From: a phage
Direction: 5' to 3' (one strand)
DNA length: 44,509 nt
Sequence record: PZ049723.1
Shown here in pieces: positions 10,097 to 33,980 of the stretch. The notes under the pieces were generated by a model. That model made no database searches. It saw only the letters and a program-made list of their open reading frames with translations, and was not told where the DNA came from. Each line of letters opens with the position of its first letter. Within the stretch, counting starts at the first letter, position 1. A program made the position numbers and the translations under genes.

Positions 10097-10159
10097 TATG
10101 CAGTCCCCTTTTTTATGCAGTTGCCGATTGACATTGTATCAGCGAATTTAAAACAAACC

Positions 10160-10480
10160 TTATTCAGTCTCAGACGAGGGGGGCCGCCGACCCCCGTCTA
10201 GTCTGAAAGACTGGTGGTTGTCCCGCCTGTCCCGATCGGCTAAAAACCGCGGCAGCACTGGCGGGGACGGGGTGCTGTCCCGCTTTGTCCCGTCCCTTAT
10301 TTGTCCCGCTTTTTGTCCCGCTTAGTTTATGCAATAAAACTGCATAGGTATGCATATTTGCGGGGTGGGACAAAGCGGGACGTCCCGTCTGTCCCGCTTT
10401 TAGTTTATGCAATAAAAGTAAATAGGTATGCGGTTTTTGAGGGGCGGGACAAAACGGGATGTACCGCTTGTCCCGCTTCA
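10160..10480. repeat. Composite non-coding element, copy A (stem-loop + GTCCCGC arrays + TATGCA palindromes)
   Basis: 10160-10214 is a 55-nt GC-rich stem-loop identical except 2 nt to 27166-27220; 10269-10345 matches 27275-27351; about 12 GTCCCGC/GCGGGAC heptamers including palindrome CGGGACGTCCCG; TTAGTTTATGCAATAAAA box present twice. Confidence 0.7.
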
Positions 10481-11157
10481 TTATGCGGGGTTTTGTTGCG
10501 CCATTTCATCAAGCGCGATTCGCTCCATTAGCTTGATATCTTTAAACGCGCGCTGCTCGTTTTCGATACCGTGCATCTTAAATAACCACTCCAACACGCC
10601 GTAGTCGATGCCGTATGCGCCACCAAATCCGGTGCGCCATTGCGTGGAGCAATCTGTGAAGACTGCGACTACCTTCGCGTTGTCGGGCCATAGCGCAACA
10701 GGCGGACAAACATCTTCGGGGGCCGCACCCCATAAACTTGCTGCTAAATCTTCGGAGGGTGGCGGCGGGCCATAAAAGCGTCGCGCCGCCTCAATTAGTT
10801 TTTTTCACGCAACCCCATCAGTTCGAGATAGTACGACGTGTGGAACACACCGAACGCGCGTGGATAGTTGACCACCAGGCGGCGGACGTTCTCCGCGTTA
10901 AATTCGTCCGGCAGATTCCAGCCTTCAGCGACGTGCATGATGGCCTCGACCATAACGTTAAAGCCGTCCGGGTCATTGTCGTCATATTCCGACAGCTTGC
11001 GTTCGGTGTCCTGCATGGTCTGCGAAAATTCGTCGATAGGGCGGTGGCGGACGGTAAACGTCATCTTGCCCGGTTCGTTCTCGCCAGGGCGCGGGATCTC
11101 AATCGGCAGCTTAAAGGTTGGTTTAGGGTCAAGTGTGAAGAGTGGTGCTTTAGCCAT
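10481..11157 (-). CDS. Tail assembly chaperone G-T fusion made by programmed -1 frameshift
   Basis: Canonical slippery heptamer A_AAA_AAC at 10798-10804 (minus strand); the -1 frame stays open for about 105 codons to TAA at 10481; architecture matches the conserved G/G-T pair upstream of tape measure. Confidence 0.55.
10795..11157 (-). CDS. Tail assembly chaperone (lambda G-like)
   Basis: ATG at 11157 with GGAGAA RBS (track ORF begins at TTG 11172); 120 aa; ends GAA AAA AAC TAA, placing a slippery heptamer directly before the stop. Confidence 0.65.
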   Translation of the reverse strand: MAKAPLFTLDPKPTFKLPIEIPRPGENEPGKMTFTVRHRPIDEFSQTMQDTERKLSEYDDNDPDGFNVMVEAIMHVAEGWNLPDEFNAENVRRLVVNYPRAFGVFHTSYYLELMGLREKN

Positions 11158-11196: not shown

Positions 11197-11226
11197 ATAT
11201 TAACACTCGCTATTTAAGCGACCAAA

Positions 11227-11952
11227 TCAAGACAACGCCTCGACCAGGTCCTTACGGTAGATAACCATATCAGACTGCATGGTCAGAGTAGACTGTACCG
11301 TTTCCACGTTGTTTACTTCAGCGGAAGGAATCTTCTGGAAAGATACCTTTGCCGGGTAAATACGGATCTCACCTTTGCCGCTTGCCGCTGCGGGGTTAGT
11401 GAACTTAATCACAGTGGTTTTCTGTGTGTCGTCCAGGTCTTCCAGGATTGGGCGGATCGGGTCTTCTTCGTCGTGGGTGAAAGTGTAAGTCTGTACCAAC
11501 GGGTTTTTCGTGGTGTTCAGACTGATTGCGGTGTTCACCTGCAACGGCTGGAAGGTAGTCGTCTGCTGGTCGCCACCAGACACGGCAACGTTAGTAATGA
11601 AAGGGAAGTCGATAAAGCCCGACACCTTCACCACTTCGCCCGGAGTGCCTACGCTGAAAGCGCCGGTCGGGTATTTTGTGACGTCTTCGGTGTCGAAGCG
11701 CGCCAGCGTAACGTCGTTGGTGTCCACTTTACCCACGATGAATGCACGGTTAAGCGCTCGGACCCACGGGGTTTTAGTGAACATAACAACGTCGCCAACA
11801 ACCAGACCATGCGAAGCCGCACAGGTAATTACGCAACCTTGCGTAAGGTCGGAGATCGACGCCGCGGCGTTGGTAGCTGCCGTAACAGCGATGCCGCTAC
11901 CCAGTACGGACCCAATCTGGACGCTGGACCCGTTAGGAAGTTGATAACCCAT
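11227..11952 (-). CDS. Major tail protein
   Basis: 241 aa; ATG at 11952 with AGGAG RBS; position upstream of chaperone and tape measure; followed by an attenuator-like terminator. Confidence 0.7.
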   Translation of the reverse strand: MGYQLPNGSSVQIGSVLGSGIAVTAATNAAASISDLTQGCVITCAASHGLVVGDVVMFTKTPWVRALNRAFIVGKVDTNDVTLARFDTEDVTKYPTGAFSVGTPGEVVKVSGFIDFPFITNVAVSGGDQQTTTFQPLQVNTAISLNTTKNPLVQTYTFTHDEEDPIRPILEDLDDTQKTTVIKFTNPAAASGKGEIRIYPAKVSFQKIPSAEVNNVETVQSTLTMQSDMVIYRKDLVEALS

Positions 11953-26488: not shown

Positions 26489-26779
26489 TTATTTCGCAAG
26501 CTGGGCGAATAGTTCGCGCTGGGCTTTAATCCGGGCGACGTTTGTCACTGCCTTATCGCCAATACCGAAGCGATAGGCCAGGCGTTCACGGGCAAATGCA
26601 AGCGCGTAAGCCCTGATAGCCGCGCGCAACGGCTCGGGGTCTTCCATGCCCGCGGTCGCATCCATGATCGCAAACCAGGTCGGAGCTACCAGGCGCTCCC
26701 ACGGTGCGCTGCCGTTGGTATATCTCACTTCGACCGGTTTTGCCACCGCCATTGTGTAATTCCAGATTAACGCTCTCAT
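26489..26779 (-). CDS. Hypothetical protein
   Basis: 96 aa ORF; ATG at 26779 overlaps the stop of the upstream small gene. Confidence 0.45.
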   Translation of the reverse strand: MRALIWNYTMAVAKPVEVRYTNGSAPWERLVAPTWFAIMDATAGMEDPEPLRAAIRAYALAFARERLAYRFGIGDKAVTNVARIKAQRELFAQLAK

Positions 26780-26955
26780 AGTTCCGTAACCCTCTCAACC
26801 GGTTTATACCCCAAACGATAGCTGTCGCCCCAAAGTAGCAGGCCCATAAATTCATCTATGCTAAACGCTCGCTTGCACACAGTGCGAAGCTCCCCGTTGT
26901 GGACTACCGTATCGCCGATCTTGATTTCGCGCTTATTAACCATTTCGGTTTTCAT
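26776..26955 (-). CDS. Hypothetical small protein (59 aa), not in ORF track
   Basis: ATG at 26955 preceded by GGAGGG RBS; MKTEMVNKREIKIGDTVVHNGELRTVCK...; stop overlaps next gene start (ATGA). Confidence 0.4.
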   Translation of the reverse strand: MKTEMVNKREIKIGDTVVHNGELRTVCKRAFSIDEFMGLLLWGDSYRLGYKPVERVTEL

Positions 26956-26956
26956 G

Positions 26957-27015
26957 TTCTACCCTCCTGTTGGTGTGCAACCAATGTAGCAAGGTGCCGG
27001 GTTGGATGCAACCAA
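26957..27015 (-). promoter_or_regulatory. Promoter-like sequence with two TTGGTTGCA motifs and conserved leader
   Basis: On minus strand TTGGTTGCAT, 17-bp spacer, TACATT, then GGTTGCACACCAACA and GGAGGG RBS; the last 15-mer is shared exactly with 16066-16080. Confidence 0.45.
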
Positions 27016-27165
27016 TATTAATCACGCGCATGAAAAAGTTGATCGCTATCTGCTGTAGCTGCAAACTGCATTTTTCACCCACCATTCTACATATCGCATT
27101 GGTTGCCTAGTTCACCCACGACCGCGATTCGCATCCTGCTGCCGTGTATTTTGCAATCCCGGATT

Positions 27166-27351
27166 TTATTCAGTCTCAGACGAGGGGGGCCGTTGACCCC
27201 CGTCTAGTCTGAAAGACTGGGGTGCTGTCCCGCTGTCCCGCTCCTCGCCAGGCCGCGCCATCCGGGGCGGGACGGGGGTGCTGTCCCGCTTTGTCCCGCC
27301 CCTTGGCTGTCCCGCTTTTTGTCCCGCTTAGTTTATGCAATAAAACTGCAT
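27166..27351. repeat. Composite non-coding element, copy B
   Basis: 27166-27220 stem-loop identical to 10160-10214 except the loop (gccgTTga vs gccgCCga); 27275-27351 near-identical to 10269-10345; GTCCCGC arrays and TATGCA-N7-TGCATA palindrome. Confidence 0.7.
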
Positions 27352-27433
27352 AACTATTCACTATATTTACACTACACGGCAACCAATGCGACCAGCTAAA
27401 AACACTCGAAATGGCAACCAATGCGACCAGAAT

Positions 27434-27664
27434 TTAATCTTTTAAATCATCATCGGTCGCAGAAAGCGTGATGGGTATACTCGTTTTAATGACAATATTC
27501 GACGACCCGTAGATGGCCCCGGTGTGCGGATCGGTATAAAAACCGAGCACGCCGCGCTCGACCATATCGTCGATTGCCTTCGTCGATGTGCCACCTTTCG
27601 CCAGCCCAGCCTGGCGGACAATTGCCGATTTACTGAATCCGGTATGGTCCGGGTTATCTTCCAT
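27434..27664 (-). CDS. Small HTH DNA-binding protein (putative regulator)
   Basis: ATG at 27664 overlaps the helicase stop (ATGA); 76 aa; helix-turn-helix-like SKSAIVRQAGLAKGGTSTKAIDDMVERG; a longer in-frame start at 27691 is possible. Confidence 0.5.
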   Translation of the reverse strand: MEDNPDHTGFSKSAIVRQAGLAKGGTSTKAIDDMVERGVLGFYTDPHTGAIYGSSNIVIKTSIPITLSATDDDLKD

Positions 27665-29040
27665 CAGTTTTTCCAGTGCCGCATAAAGCACTTTCTCTTT
27701 TCGTTGCGCGGTCCCGCGGCGTTCTCTTCCTTAACTGCTGCCTTGCCCGCGGCCTTCGCCTGTTCGATGGCGAACGGTGCCAGGGCGACCGGTACGAGGT
27801 ACAGAGTCTCGTCGCGAGGCGTGGAGGCAATCGGCTTGACGTCCCAACCGGCGACCACATCACCGAAGTCCGGCCCGGTGCTGGTGGACTGGTGGGCTTC
27901 GAACGCCTCGGACTTGCGGAGATCCACCTTAACCTTGCACTTGAGCAGGACGAAGCCGCGCGGCGCTTGCTTGATGCCGTTACGTGCCTTTTCGTGATAC
28001 AGGTTAAGTTGTCCCGGCTGGTTGTCGTCCGGCTGTTCCAGGAAGAACGCGGAATCAACAGCACCATGAAGCGCGCCGGACCCGCGTGGCGTTCTGCTGC
28101 CGTTTGCACCTTTAGCAGGGTGGTGGATGACGCCCGCACTGCCGCCTGTATTTTCCGCAATGGCCTTCAGCGCCTTGACCACTTCGCCCATATCGCTGGC
28201 GTTGTTCTCGTCGAACGGTTTAGCATCGGCGGACCGCAGCGCAACAGTCTGGTTGAGTGAGTCGAATGCCACCAGGCCAACCGGTTCGCCGTTAGCGGTG
28301 CGGTTGATAAAGCTGATAACTTCGCGCAAGCCCGATTTGCTGGTGATATCCCAGCCGCGTGACTGCAGATCGATAATGTGCAGCTTGTCCAGGTCGTGCT
28401 CGTATTTAATCTGCAATGCCTCCTTACGCTGGTTGGAGGCTTCGCCACCTTCCGCGTCGAAATAGAAGCAATGAGACTGGACGACCTTCGCACCGCCAAA
28501 CGGAATACCCGCGGCAACCGCACCCATCTGCCCCAGCACGTAGAACGATTTACCGATGTTCGATTCGCCAGCCATATACCAGGTCGATTTGAAGTTAATC
28601 AACCCCTCGATGATCGGGTCGTGCTTACTGAACAGCGCAACCGGCTCGTTGTCCAGGTCTGCATCGGTGCACACGCCGTATTCTTCGCCGTCGCCAACTG
28701 CATCAACGATATGTTCATAGCAGGATTCCACTTCCTCGTCGTCCAGTCCTGGAAGGATGGCGGCGATTTGCTTGCGGGACATATTGTGTGGCTCGACGTT
28801 CAGGTGGTCCGGGATCCCGATAAGACGCAGCGCCAGGTGCTGGTGTCTGTTCAGTTCCGAGCAACACTCGTTGCCGGTGTGCATACACTTGAAACGGATC
28901 TCGCCATCCTTGACCATGATAGCCGTCGACCCTTCGCCGCTGTGCAGATGTTCGTTCGGGCACGGCACTTCATAACCCCGACCGGACGACAGCGGTTCGA
29001 ATCCGGCCTGGAAGCACCAATCCAGAATGCCGTCAGCCAC
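27664..29040 (-). CDS. Replicative helicase with N-terminal Zn finger (RecA-fold, RepA/DnaB-like)
   Basis: Walker A GESNIGKS and Walker B-like LVAFDSL; N-terminal Cys/His cluster (CPNEH ... CMHTGNECC); ORF opens immediately after an in-frame TAA and has only a GTG start. Confidence 0.65.
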   Translation of the reverse strand: MADGILDWCFQAGFEPLSSGRGYEVPCPNEHLHSGEGSTAIMVKDGEIRFKCMHTGNECCSELNRHQHLALRLIGIPDHLNVEPHNMSRKQIAAILPGLDDEEVESCYEHIVDAVGDGEEYGVCTDADLDNEPVALFSKHDPIIEGLINFKSTWYMAGESNIGKSFYVLGQMGAVAAGIPFGGAKVVQSHCFYFDAEGGEASNQRKEALQIKYEHDLDKLHIIDLQSRGWDITSKSGLREVISFINRTANGEPVGLVAFDSLNQTVALRSADAKPFDENNASDMGEVVKALKAIAENTGGSAGVIHHPAKGANGSRTPRGSGALHGAVDSAFFLEQPDDNQPGQLNLYHEKARNGIKQAPRGFVLLKCKVKVDLRKSEAFEAHQSTSTGPDFGDVVAGWDVKPIASTPRDETLYLVPVALAPFAIEQAKAAGKAAVKEENAAGPRNEKRKCFMRHWKN

Positions 29041-29696
29041 CCCATCATCGCCCTGGGTAAGCTCGCGGCGTACTTCCTCTTCTCCACCCCCAGCTTATCC
29101 GCCAGGCGGAGCAGACGACGGACGCTGGCGCGTTTGCCGTAGTGGCACTTAACGACAGACTGCTGATGTGGCAGGTACATAAGGCGGTTTGTGTCTTTAG
29201 TACAATCGTCGAAGTCCACATCTGACAGACCCAGTTGGTGTAATAGTGCATACTGGACGCGGCCCAGGTCTTCAGCCGGTACAGGCTTGTCCGTGAGCAC
29301 CAGGAAACGGGCGCAACGCGTGCCGCCTTTCAGCGGGTGGCGGTCGCCGGTTGTGGTGTGAAATACGTGCTCCAGTCCCGCGTCGATGAACGCCTTACGG
29401 CAGCGGCGTAGGGTGCGGGTGTCGGTACGGTCGATATCGAAGAACATGATCGAGCGGTCCACCGCACTGGTCTTACGACGCAATCCGTCACGGGTATACG
29501 CCACGATGCCATCGGCCTTACGCTTGCGGCGCGCATACTCGGCTTTATCTTCCGTCTTGTTGATATGCACCGAGGAGATTTCTTTCGCATCATTGATAAA
29601 GGCGAAAAACTCTTCGGTAGTCATCTGGAAGTTTTCCGCCCTGGCTTTTTCGCCTTTTTTAGCGGGTCGTGTTACAGCGAATTTAATTAAGCTCAT
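28851..29696 (-). CDS. Primase-like replication protein, N-terminal part; 3' end overlaps helicase out of frame
   Basis: ATG at 29696; DxD-like FFDIDRTD and HTTTGDRHP motifs; last ~60 codons are Arg/Ser/Cys-rich and read as the wrong frame of the helicase N-terminus; G5 run at 29087-29091. Confidence 0.4.
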   Translation of the reverse strand: MSLIKFAVTRPAKKGEKARAENFQMTTEEFFAFINDAKEISSVHINKTEDKAEYARRKRKADGIVAYTRDGLRRKTSAVDRSIMFFDIDRTDTRTLRRCRKAFIDAGLEHVFHTTTGDRHPLKGGTRCARFLVLTDKPVPAEDLGRVQYALLHQLGLSDVDFDDCTKDTNRLMYLPHQQSVVKCHYGKRASVRRLLRLADKLGVEKRKYAASLPRAMMGWLTAFWIGASRPDSNRCRPVGVMKCRARTNICTAAKGRRLSWSRMARSVSSVCTPATSVARN

Positions 29697-29706
29697 TGCC
29701 GTGGCC

Positions 29707-30036
29707 TTACTTAGAAGTTTTATTATTGCGTACCCAAGAGCGCACTGTGCTCTGATTAATTCCGGTCAACTCGGCAATCATCGCCCAGGATTTGCCCTCG
29801 GCGCGCAAACGGATAACCTGCTTTTTGTATTCTTCCATTTCTTCATTGTGTTTTTGCAGCTTGCTTGCTGCCGTACCGTTGAGTAATTCCAGCCGGGCGC
29901 GCAATTCTTTTTCGACACTGCGCAGGCGCTCGATTTCAAATAACACCGCACCCACGGCATCGGTATAAGCCCATGACCGGCTTGTCTCACTGCAAACAGT
30001 CTTCGTTAACATTTCGATTGCGTCGTTTACATTCAT
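29707..30036 (-). CDS. HTH transcriptional regulator (LuxR/sigma region-4-like C-terminal HTH)
   Basis: 109 aa; C-terminal SWAMIAELTGINQSTVRSWV; first gene of the leftward operon from the divergent promoter region. Confidence 0.6.
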   Translation of the reverse strand: MNVNDAIEMLTKTVCSETSRSWAYTDAVGAVLFEIERLRSVEKELRARLELLNGTAASKLQKHNEEMEEYKKQVIRLRAEGKSWAMIAELTGINQSTVRSWVRNNKTSK

Positions 30037-30241: not shown

Positions 30242-30437
30242 TCTCCCCGTCGACAGGATGCAGGACGCAAACTGGAGAGGGGCAACGCAGGGGCCGGATC
30301 GAAGTGTCAGGATTCCCAACCGTGATTATATAACCAGGTCCACTACCCGAAGGGGAGAACGCGTAACCTGGCAATATGTTAAGGCCACCGACGAAGTTAA
30401 CTGCCGACACCTAAACTTAACCAATCGGAGATATACC

Positions 30438-30950
30438 ATGTTTGAGCAAATCGTAAACCTGATCACTCGCGGCGTAGTAGCACTGGAAACCATCGCTAAA
30501 CATTATGAAACCGTTGGCGCTGCCGTTGGTAAGCAGGAGGACAAGAAGCCGTCTAAGGCCAAAAAAGAAGTTGTCGAAGATGACGACGATGACGCCGAAG
30601 ACGAAAAACCGGCTAAATCTAAAAAAGCCCCGGCGAAAGGCAAGGCCAAAAAAGAAGTCGTAGAAGACGACGACGATGCCGAAGACGAAAAACCGGCTAA
30701 GGCTAAGAAAGCACCGGCGAAAGGCAAAGGTAAGAAAGATGCCGATCCGCTGGCAGAGATGCGCGACGAGATCAAACAATATGCCGCGATTATCGCTGGC
30801 GGTGATGACGACGACGCGAACGACGAATTCGACGACCTGCTGGAGTCGTTCGAGATCAAATCAATCGCCAAGCTGGAAGATGACGACGTCGAAGACTTCC
30901 ACACAGAGCTAAAAGAAATCGTCGAAACCTATTTCGAATTGGAAGATTAA
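30438..30950 (+). CDS. Highly acidic tandem-repeat protein; first early gene (DNA-mimic / anti-restriction candidate)
   Basis: ATG at 30438 with GGAG RBS; 170 aa; two copies of KKEVVEDDDDxAEDEKPAKxKKAPAKGK and acidic C-terminus; followed by terminator. Confidence 0.65.
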   Translation: MFEQIVNLITRGVVALETIAKHYETVGAAVGKQEDKKPSKAKKEVVEDDDDDAEDEKPAKSKKAPAKGKAKKEVVEDDDDAEDEKPAKAKKAPAKGKGKKDADPLAEMRDEIKQYAAIIAGGDDDDANDEFDDLLESFEIKSIAKLEDDDVEDFHTELKEIVETYFELED

Positions 30951-33129: not shown

Positions 33130-33194
33130 AGCAACCAAGCCGAACGGGGTGGCTTCCAATAGCCCCGATACATGTGAAAATGAGGAATTGGAAA

Positions 33195-33980
33195 ATGGCT
33201 AAAGTCAACCTGAAAAATGTGCGTGTATGTTTCCTGAAAATTTGGGAACGTGATACCCCTAAACAGGATGGACAAAAACCAGCATACCGTGCCGTGATTC
33301 TTCTTGATAAAGAAGATCCGCAGGTGGACAAAGTGGAAGCGGCAGCGCGCGCAGTGCTCACCGACAAGCTGAAATCTGAGAAGAATGCCGATAAGTGGAT
33401 GGACCGCCACTACGCCCAGGATTCTAAGGAATGCGCAGTTCGTGACGGTGACGAGCGCGACGAAGTAACCGAAGAATTCGAAGGCATGTTGTACATCAAC
33501 GCTAAATCGTTCAAACAGCCAAACATTCAAACGTCACTCGGCGAGAAGCAGACCGAACAGGGTCTGACCGTAGAAGGCGACGAGATTGAAGGCCAGGAGA
33601 TCTACTCCGGTTGTTATTGCAACGTGTCCCTTGATATCTGGGCGTGGAACAATACCAACGGCAAGGGGCTCGGTGCTGGCTTGCTGGGTCTGCGATTCCG
33701 TGAAGACGGCGAAGCCTTCGGAGGTGGCGGGTCTTCATGTTCCGACGAAGACCTGGACAACGACGACGAAGACGAAAGCCCGCGTAAGTCCAAAAAGTCA
33801 AAACGTCGTGATGACGATGATGAAGATGACAAGCCGCGCAAGTCCAAGAAATCCAAGCGCCGCGATGACGACGACGATGAGGAAGATGAAAAACCTCGCA
33901 AACGCCGCAAGTCCCGCGATGACGAAGATGAGGACGAAGACGACGAAGACGAAGCACCACGTAAACGTCGCCGCCGTTAA
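33195..33980 (+). CDS. ssDNA-binding protein (DUF2815-like) with unusual alternating basic/acidic repeat tail
   Basis: ATG at 33195 with GAGGA RBS; 261 aa; C-terminal ~80 aa are repeats of PRKSKKSKRRDDDDE-type units ending in RKRRRR. Confidence 0.55.
   Translation: MAKVNLKNVRVCFLKIWERDTPKQDGQKPAYRAVILLDKEDPQVDKVEAAARAVLTDKLKSEKNADKWMDRHYAQDSKECAVRDGDERDEVTEEFEGMLYINAKSFKQPNIQTSLGEKQTEQGLTVEGDEIEGQEIYSGCYCNVSLDIWAWNNTNGKGLGAGLLGLRFREDGEAFGGGGSSCSDEDLDNDDEDESPRKSKKSKRRDDDDEDDKPRKSKKSKRRDDDDDEEDEKPRKRRKSRDDEDEDEDDEDEAPRKRRRR

Follow-up and report, generated by a model that had tools for sequence, protein, structure and literature searches.

A repeat region beside the helicase-primase gene as a candidate replication origin of Dhillonviruses, with a copy of its core in the tail operon

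Region B, a block of repeats located just after the helicase-primase gene of a Dhillonvirus, and a related block in the tail operon (region A) were analysed in sequence record PZ049723.1. The whole stretch of 44,509 nucleotides (nt) is called the window, and the composite element shared by the two regions is referred to as copy B and copy A. Several known replication systems are built from similar parts. The satellite phage P4 has two separated cis regions, ori and crr, which carry direct and inverted copies of one octamer. One of these regions adjoins the gene of the P4 alpha primase-helicase, which binds the octamer iterons by a C-terminal winged helix. SPP1 is a 44-kilobase (kb) lytic pac-type siphophage with two similarly organised origins, in which direct repeats are combined with an AT-rich unwinding element (PMC6316719). 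The SPP1 origins lie ~13 kb apart, one in a replication gene and the other interrupting late morphogenesis genes, and oriR was proposed to stall forks and thereby to trigger the switch to concatemer synthesis (PMC6316719). In the archaeal plasmid pRN1, a stem-loop origin is found just downstream of an operon encoding a small helix-turn-helix (HTH) repressor and a multifunctional primase-helicase that has a winged-helix domain (orf56/orf904). This origin also works when displaced, and a similar arrangement was proposed for the Bordetella phage BIP-1 (PMC4234260). In RSF1010, oriV combines RepC-bound iterons, GC-rich and AT-rich blocks and ssi hairpins. The RepB' primase requires these hairpins; it recognises a specific sequence next to the hairpin, and priming takes place downstream (PMC8567376).

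The window has a GC content of 54.6% and covers nearly the whole genome of a lytic siphophage of the genus Dhillonvirus (SO-1/HK578 type). Bases 26500-28500 matched 159 phage records with 80-99% identity, Escherichia phages ZCEC10-12 at ~92.6% and Sodalis phage SO-1 at 90%. The GenBank record of SO-1 (2009) labels the homologous loci as repeat_region 'region A' and 'region B', with a note on 'direct, inverted and palindromic repeat sequences' and a statement of the similarity between the two regions. In the literature searched, no paper gave regions A and B a function, and no replication origin or regulatory map was found for Dhillonviruses. The reading favoured here, to which an even chance was given, is that region B (~27090-27433) is a cis-acting replication-origin region of the iteron type. 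By analogy with oriR of SPP1, copy A would be a secondary site. The element is of a familiar kind and, with both repeat regions already in public annotation, is modest as a discovery. What is new is the distinction of two repeat classes, the bracket formed by the class-1 sites, the layout shared across lineages and the description of copy A as a probable derived duplicate.

Along the minus strand, the small HTH gene is followed by the helicase-primase gene and region B. Then come small genes, lysis genes and the terminase, after these the head and tail genes and the tail chaperone, and finally region A and the tape measure. Both copies lie within one long minus-strand transcription direction. 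The features of region B and its two borders, listed in this direction, are as follows.

27434-29696, minus strand: helicase-primase gene, orthologue of SO-1 gp48, with the stop codon at 27434-27436
27413-27430, minus strand: 18-mer copy 1, gene-proximal class-1 site, exact match; sense sequence CTGGTCGCATTGGTTGCC, conserved core CGCATTGGTTGCC
27378-27395, minus strand: 18-mer copy 2, class-1 site abutting the AT-rich stretch, exact match
27327-27377, no strand assigned: AT-rich stretch, candidate DNA-unwinding element, 26% GC, contains GTGAATAGTTAT
27226-27328, minus strand: array of CGGGACA boxes (class-2 repeats), six direct copies and one inverted copy, with a GC-rich spacer
27171-27219, no strand assigned: GC-rich inverted repeat of 49 nt (hairpin or cruciform), invariant arms and variable loop
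27090-27107, plus strand: third class-1 site, inverted relative to both 18-mers, 15/18 match; core TCGCATTGGTTGCC at 27094-27107
26976-27016, minus strand: promoter-like region of the next leftward operon, with two ATTGGTTGCA sites, TTGCAT-17-TACATT, GGAGG and an ATG at 26955

Copy B had been placed at an operon boundary in the initial annotation, made from the sequence of the window. This was confirmed: the stop codon of the helicase-primase gene (27434-27436) lies on one side and the promoter-like sequence (27016-26976) on the other.

Conservation was followed in genus alignments of 18 region-B and 15 region-A sequences, to which six independently fetched loci were added. The two exact 18-base-pair (bp) direct repeats reported earlier were recovered by a match search, with GGCAACCAATGCGACCAG exact on the plus strand at 27378-27395 and 27413-27430. 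When up to three mismatches are allowed, 0.07 occurrences of GGCAACCAATGCGACCAG are expected by chance, and three copies were obtained in 0 of 100 shuffles. The first 18-mer is separated from the stop codon by 3 nt and from the second 18-mer by a spacer of 17 nt. That the two copies are identical over all 18 nt is particular to this genome. Most relatives have TTTGCGCGCATTGGTTGCC as the gene-proximal copy and CTGGTCG(C/T)ATTGGTTGCC as the distal copy, and within the 18-mers only CG(C/T)(A/G)TTGGTTGCC is conserved (a core of 13-14 nt, tCGCaTTGGTTGCC). The core of copy 1 was kept in 17 of 18 relatives, EP23 having no gene-proximal copy. The core of copy 2 and the GGCAACCAATGC of the third site were invariant and conserved, respectively, among the aligned Dhillonvirus genomes. 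Upstream of the element, one class-1 copy is present in EP23, two in most genomes and three in Ioannina, EE09 and SM_S22.

The 18-mers had been described as flanking copy B and as carrying a variant of the promoter-associated motif, and both descriptions had to be adjusted. Two direct copies do stand on one side of the element; a third, inverted copy stands on the other side, so that the sites form a bracket. The 18-mers are not part of the duplicated element; copy A has no such sites. The minus strand of each 18-mer does carry TTGGTTGCC. The sites belong to a separate sub-class, tCGCaTTGGTTGCC, which is almost confined to region B (3-4 copies per genome in 4/4 complete genomes examined). Members of this sub-class have a CGC(A/G) 5' flank and a C at the 3' end, and both flanks differ consistently from those of the promoter sub-class.

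Between the class-1 sites, the 50-mer at 27327-27376 has 26% GC and is tied second-lowest among the 50-mers of the window (rank fraction 0.0004). A palindrome, TATGCA-N7-TGCATA, is found inside the AT-rich stretch at 27334-27352. Its seven-nucleotide spacer (N7) reads ATAAAAC in eight genomes and the exact reverse complement, GTTTTAT, in six, including the window. This is a small inversion polymorphism, as from hairpin- or cruciform-mediated template switching. On the sense strand, four direct CGGGACA boxes are followed by one inverted box, the GC-rich spacer and two more boxes. For the heptamer GTCCCGC, 24 occurrences were counted in the window (8.5 expected), 15 of them within regions A and B; the counts of CGGGACA are 7 for region B and at least 8 for region A. 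Across 18 region-B and 15 region-A genomes, the spacers drift but the boxes do not vary. The number of boxes per genome varies from 4 in EE09 to 12 in SM_S22, both of them isolated phages with deposited genomes. In EE09, the inverted box, the GC spacer and boxes 5-6 of region B were lost by deletion between two GCGGGACAGCACCCC repeats. In SM_S22, the box array of region B was duplicated (12 boxes) and the spacer is of the region-A type, which points to A-to-B recombination.

The inverted repeat was found in 18 distinct versions, which differ mainly in the loop. The first sample was biased by a search pattern that fixed the 5' arm; the six independent loci confirmed that this arm is invariant. 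A comparison of the hairpin variants in relatives, proposed in the initial annotation as a search for covariation, gave none beyond that of the controls, with 15 of the 20 pairs invariant. Judged from these alignments, invariant arms with a free loop would fit sequence-specific recognition better than bare structure. Downstream of the hairpin, the sense strand contains ~60 conserved nt, the inverted third site, ~80 conserved nt and the promoter-like pair. Resemblances to sigma-54, DnaA-box, IHF and Pho-box sequences were sought by eye and none was convincing.

Region B is under purifying selection. The mean pairwise identity in 16 genomes was 0.70-0.90 for this non-coding region versus 0.75-0.95 for the helicase-primase coding sequence, and region B is better conserved than the small genes downstream. 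Conservation in related genomes, whose lack the initial annotation had named among the refuting conditions, was observed: both regions were matched in all 159 Dhillonvirus records of the phage collection. No copy of the element was found in complete E. coli genomes (n=5,426) or in PLSDB plasmids (n=72,556), and an exact scan of IMG/VR gave matches to 16 Dhillonvirus contigs only. Two open reading frames (ORFs) overlapping the elements, 27176-27421 and 10170-10481, were ruled out as genes because the alignments show 1-nt indels and large copy-number changes. On the plus strand at 27030-27110, in antisense orientation to the late operon, there is a 26-codon ORF, MKKLIAICCSCKLHFSPTILHIALVA, whose last codons are the third TTGGTTGCC site. 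Most relatives retain it, but in some it is shortened or lengthened, and the sister clade lacks it. This ORF is probably not a gene.

The same layout was found at a much larger distance. Salmonella phage PhiSTP2, Hafnia phage TS33 and the metagenomic contig L039, whose helicase-primases are 43-46% identical to the one studied here, were used as distant relatives. In all three, a region-B layout with lineage-specific sequences stands directly after the helicase-primase stop codon, with TGTTGGC(T/A)GC motifs facing both ways, an AT-rich piece, then G-rich boxes, a GC hairpin and, last, a promoter. The motifs read TGTTGGCTGC or TGTTGGCAGC, in both orientations, and occur almost only after the helicase-primase gene. 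The G-rich boxes read GGGGGAGA, AGGGAGA or GGGGATC and are direct and inverted. In PhiSTP2 (helicase 43% identical), the motif is TTGGCTGC and the box GGGGGAGA, and the AT-rich 12-mer GTGAATAGTTAT is identical. The sister clade at 68% keeps TTGGTTGC, the CGGGACA boxes and the hairpin. The location beside the helicase-primase stop codon was thus held in clades at 68%, 46% and 43% identity.

The gene next to which the site is held was then considered. In the window, the helicase-primase is distributed over three frames, with two 1-nt deletions in A-runs at ~29084 and ~27702 (GGAAAAAGAG in SO-1). Because the gene is intact in all relatives, these frame breaks are most likely homopolymer sequencing or assembly errors. 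Full-length homologues have 43-49% identity in Guernseyvirinae-type phages and ~68% in the sister clade, and 1,253 phage records contain a related helicase. A structure model was made from a 37-sequence alignment, with a mean predicted local distance difference test score (pLDDT) of 75. The N-terminal part matches phage 'DNA primase' families and has invariant D87, D89 and D118 together with Cys/His residues. The helicase core is RepA/DnaB/RecA-like and closest to RSF1010 RepA. Within the protein, conservation is lowest in the C-terminal 80 residues. In the model, they form a predicted H-H-H-E-E domain (three helices, two strands) that resembles a winged helix. A single-sequence model of this domain had a pLDDT of 44 and was too poor for use. 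Neither the N-terminal nor the C-terminal part had a match in sequence searches against Pfam and PDB. The helicase-primase gene is preceded by the small HTH gene (29707-30036, orthologue of SO-1 gp47). The product is of the HTH_23/sigma70_r4-like family in Dhillonvirus and the sister clade and of the Cro/C1 HTH_3 family in the distant relatives. The class-1-type motif stays recognisable despite this switch of HTH family, and the helicase-primase is orthologous throughout.

The evidence fits region B best as a probable origin region read by a phage replication protein. Invariant repeats of variable number and orientation adjoin the most AT-rich DNA of the neighbourhood, and the site is fixed beside the helicase-primase gene across deep divergence while the repeat sequences change by lineage. 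The features of an iteron origin are present: a repeat array with drifting spacers, an adjacent AT-rich stretch and linkage to a helicase-primase gene. We infer the following binding and initiation steps and the pairing of protein with repeat. The three tCGCaTTGGTTGCC copies would be origin-specific protein-binding sites, which would mark copy B as the primary site. They would bracket an origin core made of the 50-bp AT-rich unwinding element, the CGGGACA iterons and the GC-rich inverted repeat. A phage protein would bind the repeats; the helicase-primase itself, with its divergent C-terminal domain as the binding part, would be the most economical candidate. Binding would melt the AT-rich stretch. 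The RepA-like helicase would then be loaded and its primase domain would prime synthesis; the inverted repeat may be the structure at which loading or priming takes place. Copy A, which has no bracketing sites and is an old duplicate of the core, may act as a secondary binding site or as a second origin.

Several observations weigh against this assignment. GC skew follows transcription only; it has its minimum at the divergent promoter region near 30 kb, so that an origin there is equally allowed, and it has no inflection at A or B. Gene order is conserved, and a position beside the helicase-primase gene is therefore inseparable from a position at the start of the long late operon. The motif family TTGGTTGCA is found at many Dhillonvirus promoters, and a transcription factor could use the class-1 sites as operators. 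At 8-16 nt, the spacing of the boxes is less regular than in classical iterons. No solved winged-helix origin-binding domain was matched by the C-terminal domain of the helicase-primase, and full-length fold searches were dominated by the helicase core. The literature searched held no experiment on the element in this phage group. Confidence in the origin was set no higher than stated above because the steps are inferred, GC skew is uninformative, gene order is conserved and a related motif is present at promoters.

The features of the second locus are as follows.

10097-10480, minus strand: region A, between the tail assembly chaperone and tape-measure genes; its copy A is 83% identical to copy B
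10133-10141, minus strand: extended -10-like sequence TGATACAAT, 25 nt past the hairpin of copy A, with the tape-measure ATG (10096) following after ~36 nt

The initial annotation had the composite element twice, at an operon boundary and inside the tail operon. This holds, with 83% identity between copy A (10160-10354) and copy B (27166-27360). Region A is made of three tandem modules (boxes and a TGCATA-type AT-rich piece), followed by the composite as in copy B, with its hairpin at 10165-10213. It contains no class-1 sites and no TTGGTTGC site. Copies A and B have an identity of 0.81 within one genome and 0.79 between genomes, and orthologous copies of 0.86-0.87. As orthologous copies are more alike than paralogous ones, the duplication is old and both copies have been maintained. 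Concerted evolution of the two copies was rejected, the excess identity within a genome being only ~2%. In PhiSTP2, the sole complete distant genome checked, the gap between the chaperone and tape-measure genes is coding and there is no tail-operon copy. Because PhiSTP2 has no second copy, copy A is probably specific to Dhillonvirus. Comparison of these sequences suggests that the ancestral site, linked to the helicase-primase gene, is probably region B, and that region A is probably a duplication of its core at the level of Dhillonvirus. The position-independent function suggested earlier is therefore retained in part. The Dhillonvirus duplicate does lie elsewhere; the site adjacent to the helicase-primase appears ancestral and its position is fixed across lineages.

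The sequence TGATACAAT was invariant in 15/15 genomes and was not flagged by the promoter scan. It suggests an internal promoter for the distal tail genes directly after region A. In SO-1, region A starts with a perfect 34-bp palindrome of four boxes at 11214-11250, GCGGGACAAAACGGGAC followed by GTCCCGTTTTGTCCCGC. The assemblies of three records (Kente, vB_Eco_Maverick and CHD5UKE2) end or start inside region A. The Kente record breaks there and the middle of the region is missing.

Among other explanations, a transcription-control region at the early/late boundary was considered first. A phage regulator, such as the small HTH protein, would then use the TTGGTTGCC sites and the boxes as operators or activator sites. 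By roadblock or looping, it would govern read-through from the replication operon and firing of the downstream promoter, and copy A would act likewise before the tape-measure promoter. The motif family is common at promoters: in the window, TTGGTTGC has 20 occurrences where 2.1 are expected. Most are at intergenic promoter-like sites, often paired over -35/-10 elements. The promoter-associated sites read (t/a)aTTGGTTGCA, with TTGCA often as the -35 element, 17 nt before the -10 element. Examples from the motif count are given below.

16051/16064, 26977/27008, 30226, 33115/33131, 36752, 39709/39726, 41630/41642 and 44461: (t/a)aTTGGTTGCA sites

A promoter-like sequence follows both copies (27016-26976 after copy B and TGATACAAT at 10133-10141 after copy A). 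The former, with ATTGGTTGCA sites at 27016-27007 and 26985-26976 and the next leftward ORF starting at 26955, is conserved across relatives. It was missed by the consensus scan because the -35 hexamer of TTGCAT-17-TACATT matches at 3/6 positions. In PhiSTP2, one motif copy is located just upstream of a good TTGCAA-17-TAATAT promoter. The dispersed promoter motif was seen only in clades whose small pre-helicase gene is of the HTH_23/sigma70-region-4 type, and this co-occurrence makes the HTH protein (SO-1 gp47 orthologue) a candidate reader of the motif. However, the distant relatives have no motif at other promoters and their small HTH protein is of another family, and the region-B sub-class differs from the promoter sub-class in both flanks. 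Geometry also speaks against control of the adjacent promoters: the distance from the hairpin centre to the presumed start is ~70 nt in A and ~220 nt in B, the gap is 0-170 nt in relatives, and the class-1 sites are absent from copy A. A control region was thus considered unlikely, though it keeps some weight.

Less weight still was given to a cis-acting or stand-alone RNA element, which was judged improbable. The RNA would be part of the sense transcript of the long operon or would come from a weak promoter, TTGCCG-18-AATAGT, at the second 18-mer. A sigma-70 consensus scan of 26700-27700 found no promoter; by eye, this sequence scores 8/12. It is kept as TTGCCG-18-AATAGT/AATAAT in the window, SO-1 and Ioannina, but PhiSTP2 does not retain its spacing and copy A lacks a promoter of this kind. 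The hairpin could be an RNase III processing or stabilising structure or an antitermination signal, or the GGGA-type boxes could be the targets of an RNA-binding protein. In the late transcript the composite would be present twice, once where the late operon starts and once ahead of the tape-measure gene, and it is hardly probable that it acts there as a put/nut- or RNase III-like cis signal or as a sponge for a host RNA-binding protein such as CsrA. Both copies have the same orientation relative to transcription, and GGGA is the core common to the boxes of all lineages. The RNA fold of 27171-27219 has -28.7 kcal/mol and is far more stable than shuffles (z -4.25), and a stem of ~20 pairs with internal bulges resembles T7 RNase III sites. 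But the arms show no compensatory change, the covariation measures staying within the controls, the boxes also occur inverted and 7-8 nt of each are conserved, and the flipped N7 spacer points to events at the DNA level. No intrinsic terminator was found at 27171-27219 by a scan of both strands; neither strand has a U-tract after the hairpin, and the sense strand continues GAAUAAAAUCC. A search of the whole window with Rfam 15 gave 0 matches at the gathering threshold, and a relaxed search of 26900-27500 gave chance-level snoRNA matches only (13-20 bits versus thresholds of 39-70). Protein binding or a structured RNA had both been suggested earlier as the function; the former is reasonable, and the latter was left unsupported by covariation, Rfam or a U-tract.

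A functionless, selfish or recombination-generated repeat, or a headful pac site, could be suspected from the three GenBank assemblies that start or end inside region A, from the two direct copies, which could recombine (SM_S22 carries an A-type spacer in region B), and from the headful packaging predicted by PhageTerm for a member of the genus (PMC9022532). This is very improbable: the Kente record is an assembly break at the A/B repeat, so such record ends are not physical termini; both copies are present in all 159 records, conserved as strongly as coding DNA; the identities of orthologous and paralogous copies speak for an old duplication of which both members were kept; and there is no copy in E. 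coli genomes or plasmids. The pac sites of SPP1 and P22 lie in or beside the small-terminase gene, and the region is ~5-6 kb from that gene.

Some features of the neighbouring transcription units were also recorded. The first small ORF after region B (26776-26955, minus strand, 59 amino acids) is SO-1 gp49-like and was found only in the window, SO-1, HK578, SM_S22 and JL1; other genomes start directly with a different gene. Plus-strand direct repeats of 51-84 nt are present at 30564-30731 and 33746-33973, inside two replication-module ORFs. By position these are the SO-1 gp46-like ORF (30258-30950) and the gp41/SSB-like ORF (33174-33980; SSB, protein that binds single-stranded DNA). The repeats are GAC/GAA-rich by DNA reading, and acidic, lysine-containing segments are suggested.

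Dhillonviruses rank among the coliphages isolated most frequently, with 159 records, some of them from the BASEL collection, and both phage-therapy and phage-defence studies make use of them. Should region B be the origin and copy A a secondary site, the element would be an engineering target, for example for origin plasmids amplified by infection or interfering with it. It would also provide a testable model of how a primase fused to a RepA-like helicase finds its start site. The same layout with lineage-specific motif and box sequences is natural material for specificity swaps.

The proposed origin was finally set against the systems described at the beginning, among which pRN1, RSF1010 and SPP1 have been studied by experiment and are close precedents. 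Like oriV of RSF1010, region B combines iterons, an AT-rich block and a hairpin. RSF1010 has two ssi hairpins (ssiA and ssiB) on opposite strands in one origin, and a separate initiator, RepC. Here, in contrast, each element has a single inverted repeat, the two elements share one orientation at a distance of 17 kb, and the blocks follow in another order. The annotations of SO-1 and Ioannina contain no RepC-like gene, and no search aimed at RepC was made. As in pRN1, a small HTH gene and a helicase-primase gene are followed, in non-coding DNA after the stop codon, by a hairpin (27171-27219). The pRN1 stem-loop has a kept structure and low sequence conservation, whereas the arms are sequence-invariant here and show no covariation. 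Moreover, the pRN1 helicase is of superfamily 3 (SF3), and the plasmid has no iteron array or AT-rich block of the region-B kind.

The likeness to P4 lies in two separated repeat regions with direct and inverted copies, one of them beside the primase-helicase gene, and in a single primase-helicase as the candidate initiator, with a putative DNA-binding domain at its C-terminus. The iteron sequence here is unrelated to the P4 octamer. The helicase of P4 alpha is of the SF3 type and that of the Dhillonvirus protein is RecA/DnaB/RepA-like, so the candidate initiator is not of the P4 type. No match between the P4 origin-binding domain and the C-terminal domain studied here was found in the Pfam and PDB sequence searches.

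By analogy of layout, oriL and oriR of SPP1 are the nearest parallel to regions B and A. Both phages have two similar sites made of repeats and an AT-rich stretch, one in the replication module and one among late structural genes, 17 kb apart here. In SPP1, oriL is inside gene 38 and the separate origin-binding protein gp38, a loader and a DnaB-type helicase are used; region B is intergenic and one fused helicase-primase is present. The SPP1 pair also differs in that region B has a bracketing class of sites that copy A lacks. Binding and initiation were demonstrated for SPP1 and are proposed for the Dhillonvirus sites. By the same analogy, copy A could play the fork-stalling role of oriR. If so, regions B and A would be a Gram-negative counterpart to the two-origin design of SPP1.

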